Source of the DNA: a virus
Lineage: Duplodnaviria > Heunggongvirae > Uroviricota > Caudoviricetes
Direction: 5' to 3' (one strand)
Length of the DNA: 36,875 nt
IMG/VR virus record: IMGVR_UViG_2700989507_000031
In this document: one piece after another, positions 15,831-36,875 of the stretch
Layout of the letters: each line of letters opens with the position of its first letter
Position numbering within the stretch: position 1 is the first letter of the stretch
Notes under the pieces: generated by a model
Databases searched by the model: none
Told to the model about the DNA's origin: nothing
What the model saw: only the letters and a program-made list of their open reading frames with translations
Translations under genes and position numbers: made by a program

Positions 15831-16006
15831 TTGTTTAAGGTATGCAAATGCATTACCTTACCCCCTTCAGGCGCGTGTCGTGATTTTCTAACCTGAATTT
15901 AACGGGCTGTAAAATCTGCGTGAAGCGCCTTTGTATTTTTCCCCTGAAAGCACTTCCTGAAATCCCGCAAAACCCGCCCTGAAAATTCCCGGCCTATGCT
16001 GCCGGA
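15831..16006 (+). promoter_or_regulatory. Intergenic region upstream of the I gene with three CCTGAAA repeats; candidate late promoter
   Basis: 'cctgaaa' at 15943, 15956 and 15978; the only sizeable non-coding gap in the head operon, where Mu has its activator-dependent P_I. Confidence 0.4.
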
Positions 16007-28853: not shown

Positions 28854-29404
28854 CCCTGACCCCGCATCAGCGCGCCCTGTTGCAGTTGCTGCCTGACGGG
28901 CTGGCATGGGATAAGCGGCCGTCATCCGTTCTTGCGGCTTTGTGCCTGGGCCTCAGTCATTCCACGGAGCGTGTTTCCTGGACCGGTAACCAGATGCTGG
29001 CAGAACGTTTTCCTGATTCATCCCGTCTGCTGCTGGAAGACTGGGAGCGTTATCTGGGGTTACCGGAATGTGATATGACCGGCGCAACCATTCAGGAACG
29101 TCAGCGTTATGCAGGGAATAAATACCGGATGAAACCCTCTCTTAACCGTGAATTTTATATCCGGTTTGCGGCAGAGTTTGGTTATGAAATAGATATTCAG
29201 CCATCACCGGATTCACAGTGGGTCAGTATTGTCACGATAAACAGTGAAACCGGCTACCGGAATATGAATGTGCTGGATGATATTCTCACCCCGCTGCGTA
29301 TTTATGAGGGTGGTGCGCTGGAATGTATTCTGAACCGTTATAAGCCTGCATGGCAGACGTTTATTTACGTGTATGCAAACAGTCACAAAGAGGAGAATAT
29401 TTAA
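28844..29404 (+). CDS. Tail protein, Mu gp48-like (gpI family)
   Basis: 186 aa; stop overlaps the tail-fibre ATG. Confidence 0.7.
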   Translation: MAVTLTPHQRALLQLLPDGLAWDKRPSSVLAALCLGLSHSTERVSWTGNQMLAERFPDSSRLLLEDWERYLGLPECDMTGATIQERQRYAGNKYRMKPSLNREFYIRFAAEFGYEIDIQPSPDSQWVSIVTINSETGYRNMNVLDDILTPLRIYEGGALECILNRYKPAWQTFIYVYANSHKEENI

Positions 29405-30315
29405 TGTTCCATGTTGATAATAATTCCGGCGTGGCGAATATGCCTGAACTGGCTCCGGCGCAGAGTAATACCACCACCTGGTTTACCGAAGGTGACGGAC
29501 AAAAAGGTATCAGCTGGATTGGTCAGGACTGGCTGAATATTCTCCAGGCCGAACTGCTGAATATTCTGGCTGAAGCCAGTATTCAGCCGGATAAGGCGCA
29601 GTTAAACCAGCTTACGCTGTCCATTAAAGCCATTATCGCTGCGAATGCCTTTTCCCGGAAAAACAACCTGAAAGAAATTGCTGATGCCGGTGCGGAAGCC
29701 CAGCGTCTGGCCCGTGGTTATCTTGGTCTGGGGACGCTTGCCACAAAAAACAGTCTTGGTCCCGCTGACGTTAATGCCCTGGCGAAGGATCAGAACCTTG
29801 CCGACCTGGAGAATGCGGAAACCGCCCGTAATAATCTGGATGTTTACAGCAGGAGCGAAGGTGATAACCGTTACCTGCGCAGGGACCAGAATGGCGCGGA
29901 TATCCAGGACAAAGGAACCTTTATCGATAACCTCGGTTTACGGGAAACGGTAAATAAGGCTGCTGATGCCCTGCCATCGGCTGGAACCGCCGTGGCAGCA
30001 AACAGACTCGCCACCCCAAGAAATATTAATGGTGTTCCTTTTGACGGAACGCTGGATATCAACATCACGTCAGGAATGACGCAGTCAACCGCAGATGGCC
30101 GGTATGTACAGAATGTTCAGCTTGGAGCACAGAGCTATCATTCACCCGGAGGCAATGAAATGTCATGGAATTACAGCGCACCTTCCGGTTGTATGCTTTC
30201 CGGTATTAACGTGCAGGAAACCGGCTCCCGGTCTGCGGACAATATCGGTGGGGTCTATTATCGCCCGGTTCAGATTTATATTAATAATGCCTGGAGAACG
30301 GTAAGTTCAGTGTAA
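29404..30315 (+). CDS. Tail fibre protein S: constant part (29404-29932) fused to variable tip Sv (29935-30315) in the present orientation
   Basis: ATG 29404 overlaps the gp48 stop; gix-like site inside the ORF at codons 'FIDNLGLRETV'; the C-terminal 123 aa are homologous to the minus-strand cassette. Confidence 0.8.
   Translation: MFHVDNNSGVANMPELAPAQSNTTTWFTEGDGQKGISWIGQDWLNILQAELLNILAEASIQPDKAQLNQLTLSIKAIIAANAFSRKNNLKEIADAGAEAQRLARGYLGLGTLATKNSLGPADVNALAKDQNLADLENAETARNNLDVYSRSEGDNRYLRRDQNGADIQDKGTFIDNLGLRETVNKAADALPSAGTAVAANRLATPRNINGVPFDGTLDINITSGMTQSTADGRYVQNVQLGAQSYHSPGGNEMSWNYSAPSGCMLSGINVQETGSRSADNIGGVYYRPVQIYINNAWRTVSSV
29921..29946. repeat. gix-like crossover site, left
   Basis: 'TTATCGATAACCTCGGTTTACGGGAA'; shares the 17-bp core 'TCCCGTAAACCGAGGTT' in inverted orientation with 31347-31372. 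Confidence 0.8.
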
Positions 30316-30325
30316 ACCACAGAAA

Positions 30326-30344
30326 AGGGTGCTGAATGCACCCT
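30326..30344. terminator. Hairpin between convergent S and U' genes (candidate bidirectional terminator)
   Basis: 'agggtgc-tgaat-gcaccct'; on the minus strand it is followed by 'ttttctg'. Confidence 0.5.
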
Positions 30345-30349
30345 CTGAA

Positions 30350-30877
30350 TTATTCCGGTTTTTCCGGCCAGGGAATCGCCTGGTAATGCCCCTCACTGGC
30401 AATATCATTAAAGTGCATTTCTTTAAGCTGTCGGATATACGCCATCCAGCGCGTCAGCTGTAATTTATTTTCATCGCTAATCATGTCCAGTTTTAATTCT
30501 GTTTTCCAGTCATCCACGGTTTCGTTGGCTTCCTGGAGCAGCGATGAGCGACGCTTTTCAGCAACCGTCTTCCAGTTTACCGGCACCTTTGATATCAGGC
30601 CATCAGAAAACTGCCAGTTACCGTCAATATTCACACCTTCCGGCAGTTCGTCCACTTCAACAACAGTAAAACCTGCCGGATATAAAGCAGAGACATCTTC
30701 AGCAACAGAGCAGATAATACCCGTTACAGGCGAAATACAGAGTTTGTATTTCTTTGTAAAAAGCGGGATAGATTCATAAAAATCCCTTCCGTCCTCACTC
30801 TGGAAATACTGAACATCCTCACCATAGGGTTTGTCTTTCGGGTAATATCGTTTGACATTAATCAGTTGCATAAACAT
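30350..30877 (-). CDS. Tail fibre assembly protein U' (serves the inverted orientation)
   Basis: C-terminal 'LTRWMAYIRQLKEMHFNDIASEGHYQAIPWPEKPE' is a tail-fibre-assembly hallmark; N-terminus 'MQLINVKRYYPKDKP' parallels Mu U. The track ORF start at 30922 adds an implausible hydrophobic leader; three ATGs at 30883, 30877 and 30871 are candidate starts. Confidence 0.75.
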   Translation of the reverse strand: MFMQLINVKRYYPKDKPYGEDVQYFQSEDGRDFYESIPLFTKKYKLCISPVTGIICSVAEDVSALYPAGFTVVEVDELPEGVNIDGNWQFSDGLISKVPVNWKTVAEKRRSSLLQEANETVDDWKTELKLDMISDENKLQLTRWMAYIRQLKEMHFNDIASEGHYQAIPWPEKPE

Positions 30878-30992
30878 CACCATGTAAATCAATGATAAAA
30901 ACAGGAATAATACTATCGCCATATACAGGCAATGCTTGTCTGAAATAACGCATATTTCAGATGCTGGCTGCTGTGTGCTATGCCCCCGTTAA

Positions 30993-31364
30993 TTAAATAC
31001 TTGCAGCGGATACCCAATGCCCATTAATACAATATTGTATCTGTCTGTAATAAACACGGTCATCACCACCACGCATTTCCCAGTCTCCGTCAGTCTTAAA
31101 ACCGGTAATCACATTTCCTGATGACAGGGAGTAATTATATTCCAGTCCGCCGCTTAATGCCTGCGCTCCCAGTCTTACCCCTGTAACATAACGCTGATTG
31201 GCCGTTGATTCCGGCATTCCTGACGTAATGTTTATATCCTGCGTGCCGTCAAAGACGACACCATTGATTCTGCGGGCATTTGCCAGCCTGCTTGCTGCAA
31301 CAGCCGTACCGTTTGATGGCAGGGCATTCGCGGCCCTGTTTACCGTATCCCGTAAACCGAGGTT
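30993..31364 (-). CDS. Silent alternative tail-fibre tip cassette Sv' (no own start; would fuse to S after inversion)
   Basis: Minus-strand frame 'NLGLRDTVNRAANALPSNGTAVAASRLA...ESTANQRYVTGVRLGAQA...' begins right after an in-frame TGA inside the right gix site. Homologous to Sv 'NLGLRETVNKAADALPSAGTAVAANRLA...QSTADGRYVQNVQLGAQS'. Confidence 0.7.
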   Translation of the reverse strand, partial: NLGLRDTVNRAANALPSNGTAVAASRLANARRINGVVFDGTQDINITSGMPESTANQRYVTGVRLGAQALSGGLEYNYSLSSGNVITGFKTDGDWEMRGGDDRVYYRQIQYCINGHWVSAASI

Positions 31365-31372
31365 TCAGGGAT
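31347..31372. repeat. gix-like crossover site, right
   Basis: 'ATCCCGTAAACCGAGGTTTCAGGGAT', inverted relative to the left site. Confidence 0.8.
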
Positions 31373-31426: not shown

Positions 31427-31987
31427 ATGCTGATTGGCTATATACGCGTATCAACAAATGACCAGAACACCGGTTTACAAAGAAATGCGCTGGAATGTGC
31501 AGGATGTGAGCAGATTTTTGAAGACAAAATGAGTGGTAAAACGACACAGCGGCCGGGACTGAAGCGGGCACTGAAGAAACTAAAACCCGGTGACACGCTG
31601 ATGGTCTGGAAACTGGACAGGCTGGGGCGCAGTATGCGCCACCTTGTTGCGCTGACAGATGAATTACAGCAACAGGGGATAAATTTTCGTAGTCTTACTG
31701 ACAACATTGATACGTCAACCCCCATGGGGCGCTTCTTTTTTCACATAATGGGTGCGCTGGCAGAAATGGAGCGTGAATTAATTGTCGAACGGACACGGGC
31801 TGGTCTTGCAGCTGCCCGTGAAAGGGGACGAACCGGCGGCAGACCCCGCCGTCTCACGCAGGAACAATACGAGCAGGTCGGGCGTTTACTGGCCGGGGGT
31901 GTCAGTCGAAGACAGGTGGCACTTATTTTTGATATCGGTCTTTCAACCCTTTATCGTTATTATCCTGCGAGCGTTTCGGAAAAATAA
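31427..31987 (+). CDS. gin: Serine DNA invertase, Gin/Hin/Pin/Cin family
   Basis: N-terminal 'MLIGYIRVSTNDQN' with catalytic Ser; C-terminal HTH 'GVSRRQVALIFDIGLSTLYRY'; SD 'aaggaagg'; adjacent to the invertible segment. Confidence 0.95.
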   Translation: MLIGYIRVSTNDQNTGLQRNALECAGCEQIFEDKMSGKTTQRPGLKRALKKLKPGDTLMVWKLDRLGRSMRHLVALTDELQQQGINFRSLTDNIDTSTPMGRFFFHIMGALAEMERELIVERTRAGLAAARERGRTGGRPRRLTQEQYEQVGRLLAGGVSRRQVALIFDIGLSTLYRYYPASVSEK

Positions 31988-32086: not shown

Positions 32087-34126
32087 ATGACGTCCAAATG
32101 GGTTCAACTATCATCAATGCCCGGAAACTTTACTGTTAAAGTTTCCGGTGGTACAGCGGCATTTCTTGAGGCTCCCTTTCCTCCGGCCGAAACAAAAGGA
32201 GGAATGACATTTGCTGACTGTCTCATCAGTTTTAATACACGGGATTGCCTGTGGGTAAGGCCAGTATCCGGTGATCCGAGTGTGGAAATTACCGGAGCGG
32301 GTATTGGTGCGGTCATTCCGTTAAGTGCTGATGTTGCCGGTACTGCTGAACCGTCAGACTGGGATAATGCTGAAACACATACCCGTCCGTCAGGAAATGA
32401 AACTGCTTCCAGCTCCCCTTCCTGGTATTACGTGGTGGTTCTTGCTGGTCAGTCAAACGGTATGGCTTACGGTGAAGGTCTGCCACTGCCGGAGACATAT
32501 GACCGCCCCGAACCGCGTATTATGCAGTTAGCCCGTCGCAGTACAGTCACGCCGGGAGGTAAAGCCTGTCAGTATAACGACATCATTCTGGCCGACCACT
32601 GTCTGCATGATGTGCAGGATATGAGTGGAAAAAATCACCCGAAAGCGGATGTGGCTAAAGGGCAATATGGCACCGTGGGTCAGGGGCTTCACATTGCCAA
32701 AAAACTGCTGCCGTTTATTCCGGCAGATGCGGGGATTCTGCTGGTTCCCTGCTGCCGTGGTGGTTCTGCATTCACGGCGGGTGCTGACGGCACGTACAGT
32801 GACAGCACGGGTGCTTCAGAGGACTCAGCCCGCTGGGGTGTGGATAAGCCGCTGTATAAGGACTTAATCAGCCGGACAAAAGCGGCACTGGCGAAGAACC
32901 CGAAAAACCGCCTGCTTGCTGTGGTGTGGATGCAGGGCGAGTTTGATATTGATGCGAAGCCGACGGAGCATTCTGCGCTGTTTCTGGCGATGGTGGAAAA
33001 ATTCCGCGCAGACCTGGCTGAACAGGCGGAACAGTGTACCGGTGGCAGTGCTGCTGGCGTTCCGTGGATTTGTGGCGATACCACGTATTTCTGGAAACAG
33101 AAAAATGAACCAGCATACCAGGCAATCTATGGCGGCTACAAAAACAAAACAGATAAAAACATTCATTTCGTTCCATTAATAACAGATGAAAATGGCGTGA
33201 ATGTACCCACCAACAATCCGGCAGAAGACCCGGATATTGAATCCATTGGTTATTACGGCTCAACGTGGCGTAACAGTGCCGCTACCTGGACATCTGCGGA
33301 CCGGGCCAGCCATTTCAGTGCCTGGGCGCGCCGGGGTATTATTTCTGACCGTCTGGCCACGGCTGTTCTGACTCATGCAGGGCGAACCACAGTAAAAGCC
33401 GATGTTCCATCTTCTGAAACTGAAGCACCAGTGCCATCACCTTCAGAAACTGAAGCAGTAACCACAACACTGCTGTCTTACCGTGTCAGTGAGTCAGAAG
33501 GAAATCTGAAAGCCCAGGGCTGGGAGCCGGCTGGCGGTAAAGCTGAAATTATCAGTGATGCAGGAGGCACAGGTGGTAAGGCAATGAAACTGACCAAGGA
33601 AACAGGTAAATCATCCTGGTATCTGGATCATGATGCCGGTACTGGTGCTGAACTGCTGAAAAATGGTGGTTTAATCAGTTGTCGTTTTAAAGTACCTGGC
33701 GACCTGGTGGCAAACCAGTATGTCATGGCGCTTTACTGGCCGGTTTCCTCTCTGCCGCAGGGTGTCACCCTGACAGGGGATGCAGGGAATAATCTGCTGG
33801 CATCGTTCTACATCCAGACAGACGCAAAAGACCTGAATGTGATGTACCACAATGCAAAAGTGGCAACAAATAACCAGAAACTGGGAACCTTTGGTGCATT
33901 TGATAATGAATGGCATACGCTGGCCTTCCGTTTTGCAGGAAATAACAGCCTTCAGGTTATTCCGGTTATTGATGGTCAGGATGGTGCCGCGTTTACCCTG
34001 ACGCAGTCACCAGTAGGAACTTTCCCGGTGGACAAACTCCGCGTAACGGATATCACCAAAAATGCAACTTACCCGGTGCTGATTGACAGCATTGTGGTGG
34101 AAGTGAAAAAAGCGGTAACAGAATAA
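32087..34126 (+). CDS. Multi-domain SGNH/SASA-like carbohydrate esterase (N-terminal ~110-aa domain, esterase core, S/T/E/P linker, C-terminal beta-sandwich-like domain)
   Basis: Esterase block 'YYVVVLAGQSNGMAYGEG' (GQSN motif); linker 'SSETEAPVPSPSETEAVTTT'; no N-terminal signal peptide; SD-like sequence upstream. Confidence 0.6.
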   Translation: MTSKWVQLSSMPGNFTVKVSGGTAAFLEAPFPPAETKGGMTFADCLISFNTRDCLWVRPVSGDPSVEITGAGIGAVIPLSADVAGTAEPSDWDNAETHTRPSGNETASSSPSWYYVVVLAGQSNGMAYGEGLPLPETYDRPEPRIMQLARRSTVTPGGKACQYNDIILADHCLHDVQDMSGKNHPKADVAKGQYGTVGQGLHIAKKLLPFIPADAGILLVPCCRGGSAFTAGADGTYSDSTGASEDSARWGVDKPLYKDLISRTKAALAKNPKNRLLAVVWMQGEFDIDAKPTEHSALFLAMVEKFRADLAEQAEQCTGGSAAGVPWICGDTTYFWKQKNEPAYQAIYGGYKNKTDKNIHFVPLITDENGVNVPTNNPAEDPDIESIGYYGSTWRNSAATWTSADRASHFSAWARRGIISDRLATAVLTHAGRTTVKADVPSSETEAPVPSPSETEAVTTTLLSYRVSESEGNLKAQGWEPAGGKAEIISDAGGTGGKAMKLTKETGKSSWYLDHDAGTGAELLKNGGLISCRFKVPGDLVANQYVMALYWPVSSLPQGVTLTGDAGNNLLASFYIQTDAKDLNVMYHNAKVATNNQKLGTFGAFDNEWHTLAFRFAGNNSLQVIPVIDGQDGAAFTLTQSPVGTFPVDKLRVTDITKNATYPVLIDSIVVEVKKAVTE

Positions 34127-35668: not shown

Positions 35669-35854
35669 ATGTATCGAAACATACGGTGCCGACACTGCAA
35701 TAAGCTACTGGCACGGGCCAGTTTCAGTTATCTGGAAGTAAAATGTCCGCGCTGTAAAACCCTCAATCAAATCACATCTCAGAGCGCCACAGAGCACCCC
35801 ACATACACAAGGAAATCCTGCCGTGGGGAACAAGAAACATTACTTTCAGTCTGA
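35669..35854 (+). CDS. com: Com-like zinc-finger translational regulator
   Basis: 'MYRNIRCRHCNKLLARASFSYLEVKCPRCKTL' parallels Mu Com 'IRCKNCNKLL...IRCPRCK' as recalled; SD 'aggagg' 10 nt before ATG; 3' end overlaps the downstream gene by 32 nt, as com overlaps mom in Mu. Confidence 0.7.
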   Translation: MYRNIRCRHCNKLLARASFSYLEVKCPRCKTLNQITSQSATEHPTYTRKSCRGEQETLLSV

Positions 35855-36875
35855 TAAGTCACTAACCTATGGTTCAGTATGCAGTGGTATTGAAGCTGCG
35901 ACAGTAGCCTGGAGCAATCTTGGCTGGAAAGCCAGATGGTTCAGTGAAATAGAGGACTTCCCGTCAACACTTCTTTCATATCGCTGGCCCCATATACCAA
36001 ATCTTGGTGATATGGCTTTGCTTGCGCCTCGTATCAGGGATGGGCTTATTGAAGCACCAGATATTCTTGTAGGTGGAACTCCGTGTCAGGCATTCAGTAT
36101 GTCAGGCAAACGAAAAGGCCTTTCAGATCCACGGGGGCAGTTAACACTGTCTTTTGTTGAACTGGCGAATCAGATAGATACCGTTCGGGCATCGCTCAAT
36201 AAATCCCCCTCAATAATCGTATGGGAAAACGTCACAGGAGTTTTAAGTAGCCATGACAATGCATTCGGTCATTTTCTTGGTGCGCTGGCCGGAGCAGGTT
36301 GCGCATTACAGCCAGCAAGGAAAAGATGGGCAAACGCTGGTGTTGTGTCTGGACCATCGCGTATCGTCGCCTGGCGAGTACTTGATGCCCAATATTTCGG
36401 AGTCGCCCAGGCTCGCAGAAGAGTGTTTGTTGTGGCAAGTGCTGGAAAAAGGCTCGATCCCGGAAAGGTATTATTTGAGTTCCCGCCTGTGTCGCAGGGC
36501 GATAAAAACTATTATGGAAAGAAGAAAAAATCCGAATCCCTTCTTGATCAAGGCATTGAAGGAAAATTGCACCGATATTGCCTTGAAGCATTGCCAAAAC
36601 GAACAGGCACAGTAATAGCTGGCTATAACGGAACAACTAACCAGGACATGACTATGTCTGGTGGGCTCATAGTTGAAAGAGCACCATATTCAAGGGTTCG
36701 TAGGTTGACGCCAACCGAATGCGAGAGGCTACAAGGTTTTCCCGATGGATATACAGATATTCCATGGAAAAATTCATCTCCAGCTCATCGTTATAAGGCC
36801 ATTGGAAATTCAATGCCTGTACCGGTCATGAAATGGATTGGTCGAAGAATACAGGAAGCGTTAAACGAAGTTTAA
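35823..36875 (+). CDS. DNA (cytosine-5) methyltransferase
   Basis: Motif I-like 'YGSVCSGIEAA', catalytic PCQ motif 'GGTPCQAFSMSGK', motif VI 'IIVWENVTGVL'; stop TAA ends the window. GTG start inferred from the track. Confidence 0.85.
   Translation: MGNKKHYFQSDKSLTYGSVCSGIEAATVAWSNLGWKARWFSEIEDFPSTLLSYRWPHIPNLGDMALLAPRIRDGLIEAPDILVGGTPCQAFSMSGKRKGLSDPRGQLTLSFVELANQIDTVRASLNKSPSIIVWENVTGVLSSHDNAFGHFLGALAGAGCALQPARKRWANAGVVSGPSRIVAWRVLDAQYFGVAQARRRVFVVASAGKRLDPGKVLFEFPPVSQGDKNYYGKKKKSESLLDQGIEGKLHRYCLEALPKRTGTVIAGYNGTTNQDMTMSGGLIVERAPYSRVRRLTPTECERLQGFPDGYTDIPWKNSSPAHRYKAIGNSMPVPVMKWIGRRIQEALNEV

Follow-up and report, generated by a model that had tools for sequence, protein, structure and literature searches.

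The DNA analysed here, a stretch of 36,875 nt referred to as the window, contains a Gin-type invertible tail-fibre switch in which two convergent tip cassettes flank a single tail-fibre assembly (Tfa) gene. Invertible fibre switches and Tfa chaperones are both textbook material, and the canonical segments provide each tip with a Tfa of its own. The one-Tfa layout is a conserved design, neither a collapse nor a recent loss, and it occurs in both orientations among complete E. coli genomes. The explanation that we favour, at a probability of roughly 55%, is that this one Tfa is promiscuous, is made in both orientations from its own promoter and serves both tips.

Anatomy of the invertible segment and its single Tfa gene

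By its sequence, the window is an E. coli prophage of the Mu-like, Sp18 type. A stretch of 2.66 kb that includes the switch is matched at 100% identity by E. coli O157:H7 strain F7508, and there are matches in hundreds of further E. coli chromosomes. The annotation of F7508 describes a complete Mu-like prophage with head, sheath, tube, tape measure and baseplate (gp44-48/YmfQ) genes, and the baseplate genes are followed, in order, by a 'hypothetical' fibre, an opposite-strand tail-fibre assembly protein, a recombinase, a DUF6645 protein and Com. The features of the corresponding region in the window are as follows.

29404-30315, plus strand: fibre gene S, composed of Sc and Sv, which terminates without a co-oriented Tfa
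29404-29932, plus strand: Sc, the constant fibre part, outside the invertible segment, with homology to Mu S; the PGAP start in a 100%-identical record agrees
29921-29946: left gix-like crossover site, core 29933-29934, TTATCGATAACC-TC-GGTTTACGGGAA, identical to Mu gixL at 22 of 26 positions
29935-30315, plus strand: Sv, the expressed tip fused to Sc, type B1, an open reading frame with no co-oriented Tfa
30324-30346: G+C-rich hairpin between the converging stops of Sv and Tfa, terminator-like on the minus (Tfa) strand
30350-30871, minus strand: Tfa (U-like), 173 aa, identified by PF02413, 5YVQ_B and a six-frame HMM search
30872-30992, minus strand: AT-rich spacer of 121 nt from the Sv' stop to the Tfa start, in which lie an inverted repeat of 9 bp and a ribosome-binding site (GGTG)
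30993-31358, minus strand: Sv', a silent, promoterless tip cassette, type A1, co-oriented with Tfa
31034-31063, minus strand: best sigma-70-like site, ATGACC-N18-TACAAT, inside the 3' end of Sv'; a consensus match only
31347-31372: right crossover site, core 31359-31360, ATCCCGTAAACC-GA-GGTTTCAGGGAT, the inverted partner of 29921-29946
31427-31987, plus strand: Gin/Pin-family serine DNA invertase, 186 aa, with PF00239 (Resolvase) and PF02796 (HTH_7) domains

The segment measures 1,428 bp between the cores at 29933 and 31360, and the two 26-bp crossover sites that bound it stand in inverted orientation with identical 2-bp cores (TC/GA). In the fibre, the first 190 aa match the Mu tail fibre S (5yvq_A, E 5e-49, residues 1-198), and the last 74 aa of the tip (fibre residues 229-302) align with Mu S residues 435-503 (i-E 8e-5). 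The invertase gene adjoins the segment and encodes a protein that carries both expected domains (PF00239, E 1.4e-51; PF02796, E 1.7e-14) together with the catalytic-serine context MLIGYIRVSTNDQ, and that is 73% identical to Mu Gin and 72% identical to e14 PinE. When the segment is inverted in silico, Sv' joins Sc in frame and yields an open Sc-Sv' fibre. Identity between the two tips is 54% over their whole length and drops to about 41% in the distal 70 aa, and both carry a C-terminal YYRxxQxxxNGxW motif. The hairpin between the converging genes has a 9-bp stem that is followed by a T-run on the minus strand and by a poor tail on the plus strand. This is a switch of the Gin/Hin/Cin/Pin serine-invertase kind, with an invertase, inverted sites, an in-frame exchange of tips and both states present in nature. 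Its content departs from that of the canonical G, C and P segments, Sv-U plus U'-Sv' with a Tfa abutting each tip, an arrangement that the earlier note on this DNA had described as the rule and that is indeed the one found in Mu, SfMu and e14.

The product of the Tfa gene belongs to the Caudo_TAP family (PF02413, E 1.8e-18, 67.4 bits against a cutoff of 22.1) and aligns over residues 3-147 with Mu U as it occurs in the solved fibre-Tfa complex (5YVQ_B, E 1e-15). An HMM derived from 23 Tfa proteins, among them Mu U/U', e14 TfaP/TfaE and SfMu, was searched with filters off against all stop-to-stop ORFs of at least 25 aa in the six frames of the whole 36.9-kb window; the gene at 30350-30871 was the sole match (E 8e-84), and no second Tfa was found in the window, the next best score being E 2.4. 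The earlier note had stated that the expressed S(c+v) fibre ends at 30315 with no co-oriented assembly gene and that the only assembly gene is co-oriented with the silent Sv' cassette, and both statements hold; the plus-strand Tfa homologue, whose possible existence it had raised, is absent from the window.

The Tfa gene (44.1% GC) and the spacer (38.8%) are poorer in G+C than Sv (49.9%), Sv' (48.6%), Sc (51.4%) and the window as a whole (53.7%). The AT-richness remarked on previously is thus real but modest, at about 44% for Tfa against 53.7%. The same bias accompanies the family in non-invertible loci, where Tfa genes average 46.4% GC (43.4% here) against a locus mean of about 52%, and a low GC content in every context is a property of this mobile module generally rather than a sign of separate acquisition here, which is not specifically supported. 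Two further coding possibilities within the region were considered and set aside. An antisense ORF on the plus strand (30483-30779) is not kept in the T2 allele of the gene and is no Tfa by HMM, and a longer Tfa isoform from the in-frame ATG at 30922 is probably not used, as this start is ATA in loci L019 and L020. The upstream ATG (window 30872-30922, minus strand) would give Tfa a hydrophobic 17-aa extension, MAIVLFLFLSLIYMVMF, across which the changes in relatives are mostly synonymous.

The genes on the far side of the invertase also differ from those of Mu. Directly 3' of it, at 32087-34126 on the plus strand, lies the gene for a 679-aa protein with a SASA domain (sialate-O-acetylesterase-like, E 6.7e-12) and a C-terminus that is DUF6645 (E 4e-70), without a Mu counterpart at that place. 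The DUF6645 protein is present, though diverged, in all relatives, and in the invertase-less form described below its gene is divergent from Tfa; the 679-aa protein may be an enzyme that modifies receptors or is associated with the tail. The gene for a Com zinc-ribbon protein (PF10122; 35669-35854, plus strand) extends into the start of the gene for a C-5 cytosine DNA methyltransferase (PF00145, E 1.6e-42; 35823-36875, plus strand), which occupies the Mom position of Mu. Relatives have a Mom-like 245-aa protein in place of this methyltransferase, and there may have been a Com-controlled swap of the DNA-modification module. The 'tRNA-OTHER' annotated by PGAP in one relative has no counterpart in the window according to ARAGORN.

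Conservation of the layout and its invertase-less derivative

With the window and its in-silico flipped sequence as queries, and with at least 80% coverage required in one collinear place, the one-Tfa layout was counted in 209 complete E. coli genomes, about 4% of those available as complete, of which 183 show the orientation of the window and 26 the flipped one (best identities 100% and 99.9%, respectively). Because both orientations are found in complete genomes, inversion happens in nature. The skew between 183 genomes with Sv fused to Sc and Tfa antisense and 26 with Sv' in that place could arise from unequal inversion rates, from clonal O157/STEC sampling, or from selection.

IMG/VR loci were fetched by way of Tfa and, independently, by way of the constant fibre part, and tblastn and HMM searches were run on them. 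Wherever the Sc was related (60-100% identity) and the flanks were long enough, a single Tfa stood between two convergent tips, in one orientation or the other. The allele combinations found are A1-T1-B1 (the window), A2-T1'-B1, A1-T2-B1 and A3-T3-B2; they comprise three Tfa alleles, of which T2 is 63% and T3 60% identical to the Tfa of the window, and at least five tip alleles that differ by up to 70%. The loss of a U gene, one of the explanations put forward earlier, does not hold as a recent event, given that 209 genomes share the layout and that it spans all of these Tfa and tip alleles, although an ancient loss is possible. A Tfa search of contigs representing one genome per species returned no matches.

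The layout is also found in a more distant Mu-like lineage, L131, which has one Tfa, of the Mu-U-like type, whereas its relative L122 has two. Locus L131 bears three gix-like sites (5819, 7846 and 8212), one in the fibre gene and two inverted and 366 bp apart, which points to a Min-like system of multiple inversions; here too there is a single Tfa.

All three coding parts of the switch are under selection, which is strongly purifying in Sv (dN/dS 0.04-0.11 at dS 0.75-2.8) and in Tfa (0.09-0.26). Across T1-T3 the N-terminal half of Tfa is better conserved than the C-terminal half; the N-terminal half of Mu Tfa is the fibre-binding domain, according to a published summary of North et al. 2019 (PMC9608196).

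A derivative of the switch lacks gin, the right gix site and the Sv' cassette, and is represented by L013-L018 and L022 of IMG/VR and by 7 complete genomes. In this invertase-less form, Tfa with its full spacer adjoins the DUF6645 gene divergently and is permanently convergent with the fibre gene. In L018 (5694-5875), CI5, M18, JE86-ST05 and S1-CAM-01-A, an orphan gix is kept inside the fibre gene and a unique 180-bp stretch with ATGATA-N17-TATAAT replaces gin and Sv'. Among the four genomes inspected, the prophage disrupts xdhA in CI5, hsdR in M18 and bcsA in S1-CAM-01-A, and adjoins citF in JE86-ST05. The Tfa gene is intact in three of these four, the fourth record having frameshifts in many genes, and the late region of CI5, from the large terminase gene to com, is free of pseudogenes. 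Since a transposing phage stands here at different sites in unrelated strains, the invertase-less form has spread, which means that convergence of Tfa with the fibre gene does not preclude infectivity. With Sv' missing, the sole possible client of Tfa in this form is the Sv-type tip. The divergence of Tfa alleles among invertase-less forms probably comes from recombination, in which case dN/dS is no strict measure of selection in that context.

Expression and clients of the single Tfa

In its position, the Tfa of the window departs from the usual arrangement directly 3' of a client, being convergent with Sv and separated by 121 nt from the co-oriented Sv', against -8 to 17 nt in the comparators (n = 47 + 8). 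Across the single-Tfa cassettes (n = 23) the gap from tip stop to Tfa start is 51-121 nt, and it is 69 nt in L131; by comparison, the 47 non-invertible loci have gaps of -1 to 17 nt, and Mu, SfMu, e14 and L122 have gaps of -8 to 2 nt. Each spacer type has its own Shine-Dalgarno sequence.

Promoter-like sites were scored by means of a simple sigma-70 position weight matrix (PWM) with hand-set frequencies, applied to the Tfa strand over the 200 nt that precede the gene. The best scores do not overlap, as the 15 unique single-Tfa contexts reach 8.0-12.7 and the 32 unique controls 4.0-7.6, with the reservation that the loci are related, which brings the effective sample to about five contexts against about eight, and that the upstream regions of the single-Tfa loci are AT-rich (38.6% GC against 47.6% in the controls), which raises PWM scores by itself. 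The site of the window scores 10.7, a value equalled by 1.8% of the same-length stretches of the window, and the ATGATA-N17-TATAAT site of the invertase-less form is equalled by 0.8%; the A2 cassette type reaches only 8.0, and 22% do as well. The candidate sites lie at differing positions among the cassette types. A leftward promoter between gixR and gin was not found in the scan, and inspection of the minus strand by eye gave only weak candidates there.

A Mu C-dependent late promoter in the spacer, suggested by TTAACGGGGGCATAG, was rejected because the Mu motif differs. The four annotated Mu late promoters have CATAACCCC-N20-TAnnnT in common; no match to this motif was found, and no 8-10-mer is common to the four expected late-promoter regions of the window. 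Moreover, the C protein of the window is only 39% identical to Mu C, and the G-run of the spacer is missing in other type-1 spacers. A structured RNA in the spacer was likewise rejected, as there is no Rfam match anywhere in the window and the fold z-score is only -1.26. The spacer does contain a perfect 9-bp inverted repeat (30939-30947/30953-30961; TCTGAAATA/TATTTCAGA) that is largely kept in all type-1 spacers, and this hairpin gains a mismatch in L019 with no compensatory change. Three copies of the motif CCTGAAA are also found in the presumed PI region (about 15950-16000).

The homology of the tips bears on the question of which of them the Tfa belongs with. In 47 non-invertible relatives, a Tfa of the same family lies within 17 nt 3' of the fibre ORF on the same strand, and the tips of these fibres are 34-71% identical to Sv. 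Those that are Sv-like (57-71% identical to Sv; Rac-SA53 and L048, for example) pair with Tfa proteins that are 51-58% identical to that of the window, and in most tips of the non-invertible Tfa-paired loci (Rac-SA53, L035-L084) similarity to Sv' is not detectable. Sv' itself is 57% identical to the Mu S(G+) tip, the partner of which, U, is only 28% identical to the Tfa of the window. As Sv-like tips are paired with relatives of this Tfa and Sv' is Mu-S-like, the tip with which the Tfa lineage groups is the one on the opposite strand, and by this comparison Tfa probably belongs with Sv-type rather than Mu-S-type tips. The previous assignment of Tfa to Sv' as its partner is probably backwards. 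Co-variation of tip and Tfa was also tried as a means of assigning the client and was abandoned, for the SfMu tip is 60% identical to Sv, yet its Tfa is only 28% identical.

In the mechanism that we favour, inversion of the 1,428-bp segment fuses either Sv or Sv' in frame to Sc as a host-range switch, one pared down to two tip cassettes of about 125 aa with one Tfa between them. In the flipped state Tfa lies 3' of Sc-Sv' on the late transcript, and in the state of the window it is antisense to that transcript. We infer that Tfa is a self-contained unit, equipped with a ribosome-binding site and driven by a promoter of its own that lies in the AT-rich spacer or immediately 5' of it, and that it is made in both orientations and chaperones both tips, which have the terminal YYRxxQxxxNGxW strand motif in common; in the Sv'-ON state it would additionally be transcribed from the late operon. 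The long spacer and the better promoter-like sites are signs of independent Tfa expression. Together with the invertase-less derivative and purifying selection, they make expression of U' in trans, which had been offered as one option among three, the best supported of these, though indirectly. Two observations weigh on the other side. The lack of a match to a Mu C-type motif makes a late-level supply of Tfa hard to explain, which matters if Tfa stays bound stoichiometrically to the mature fibre as it does in Mu; and the distal identity of only about 41% between Sv and Sv' counts against dual specificity. The broader proposition, that a single promiscuous Tfa with an orientation-independent promoter inside the invertible segment is a recurrently evolved minimal design, is tentative, and we would place it somewhat below even odds. 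It draws on the presence of the one-Tfa layout in at least two Mu-like lineages and in a fixed convergent derivative.

The Tfa might instead serve the co-oriented Sv' only, with Sv folding and trimerising without a dedicated chaperone, so that no Tfa is needed in the present orientation. In favour of this, Tfa has the same orientation as Sv', and inversion would place the two on one transcript; a strong and positionally conserved promoter could not be demonstrated, and the silent U' of Mu is not known to be expressed. Elsewhere, however, a Tfa closely related to this one comes directly after Sv-type tips, and its lineage by homology accompanies Sv-type and not Mu-S-type tips. The invertase-less form, moreover, having no Sv', has retained an intact Tfa, preceded by a near-consensus promoter-like site, and is found at four insertion sites. 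We therefore consider this explanation unlikely, as we do the earlier suggestion that the current tip folds without a chaperone, since related tips in other prophages are directly followed by a Tfa 51-58% identical to this one.

Less probable still is that no cognate Tfa is made in the present orientation, in which case Sv fibres would either be defective, making the inversion an ON/OFF switch, or be rescued by the Tfa of other prophages. E. coli hosts do usually carry several other Tfa genes, with multiple matching places per genome, and the Tfa of the window is antisense to the late operon, but the late genes of other prophages are repressed unless co-induced. The dN/dS of 0.04-0.11 in Sv argues against a dead state, as do the diversification of the tip into B1 and B2, the excess of Sv-ON genomes (183:26) and the fact that a derivative fixed in the Sv-ON state has spread. 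The last explanation, that the presence of one Tfa only is due to an artefact or to a recent accident, has a negligible probability: convergent, near-identical U and U' would form a long quasi-palindrome that assemblers could collapse or that could be deleted in vivo, as in the collapsed or mis-assembled segment that the earlier note had allowed for, but 183 + 26 complete genomes, produced by many different laboratories, and dozens of IMG/VR contigs have an identical layout, with alleles that have diverged and with both orientations represented, and the stops of Sv and Tfa lie 34 nt apart with a clean terminator hairpin in between.

If one promiscuous Tfa does serve both tips, the specificity between Tfa and tip would be loose in this tip family, and tips of about 125 aa would be swappable without a matched chaperone. 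In a radical version of this explanation, which builds on Mu-type Tfa staying on the fibre, the two orientations would differ in the dosage or presence of Tfa on the tip, and the switch would affect receptor binding by more than the change of tip sequence. Tfa is usually treated as tip-specific and is moved together with the fibre in host-range engineering; one chaperone between divergent tips, along with a permanently antisense derivative, suggests that looser specificity and an autonomous expression unit are possible. A 1.4-kb switch with 125-aa tips is also a compact natural template for such engineering and a test bed for Tfa-fibre recognition. In the annotation of these common EHEC/STEC prophages, the strand of Tfa says nothing on the tip in use.

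Comparison with known systems

Sp18, a Mu-like prophage of O157:H7 Sakai, is of the same prophage type as the window. The Sp18 paper grades tail-fibre function only as 'atypical', and the shared single Tfa, the spacer and the invertase-less derivative are absent there and from other searchable papers. No description of a one-chaperone layout, of its spacer and promoter signature or of a fixed convergent derivative was found in the searchable literature, in which the conserved and recurrent layout and these two accompanying features appear to be undescribed.

The closest of the classical systems is the G segment of Mu (Gin/gix; S-U / U'-S'), with which the window shares a Mu-like backbone, an Sc homologous to residues 1-190 of Mu S, an invertase 73% identical to Gin, a left site matching gixL at 22 of 26 positions and the placement of that left site inside the fibre gene, so that inversion swaps C-termini. 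The segment of the window is, however, 1.43 kb long compared with 3 kb in Mu, its variable parts are about 125 aa compared with about 335 aa, and it has one Tfa in place of two, with a gap between tip and Tfa of 121 nt compared with 2 nt. The P segment of e14 in E. coli K-12 (PinE; stfP-tfaP / tfaE-stfE) is similar in its succession of YmfQ (gp48-like), fibre, short invertible segment and Pin invertase, in the comparably small size of the segment and in the 72% identity of the invertase, and differs in having two Tfa genes, each of which abuts its fibre part (gaps of 1 and -1 nt). Non-invertible pairs of the Rac-SA53 type and their relatives resemble the window in the coding parts themselves, with tips 64-68% identical to Sv and Tfa proteins 51-58% identical to the one described here. 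In those loci the Tfa follows its fibre on the same strand within 17 nt and there is no invertase, whereas in the window the homologous pair is convergent.
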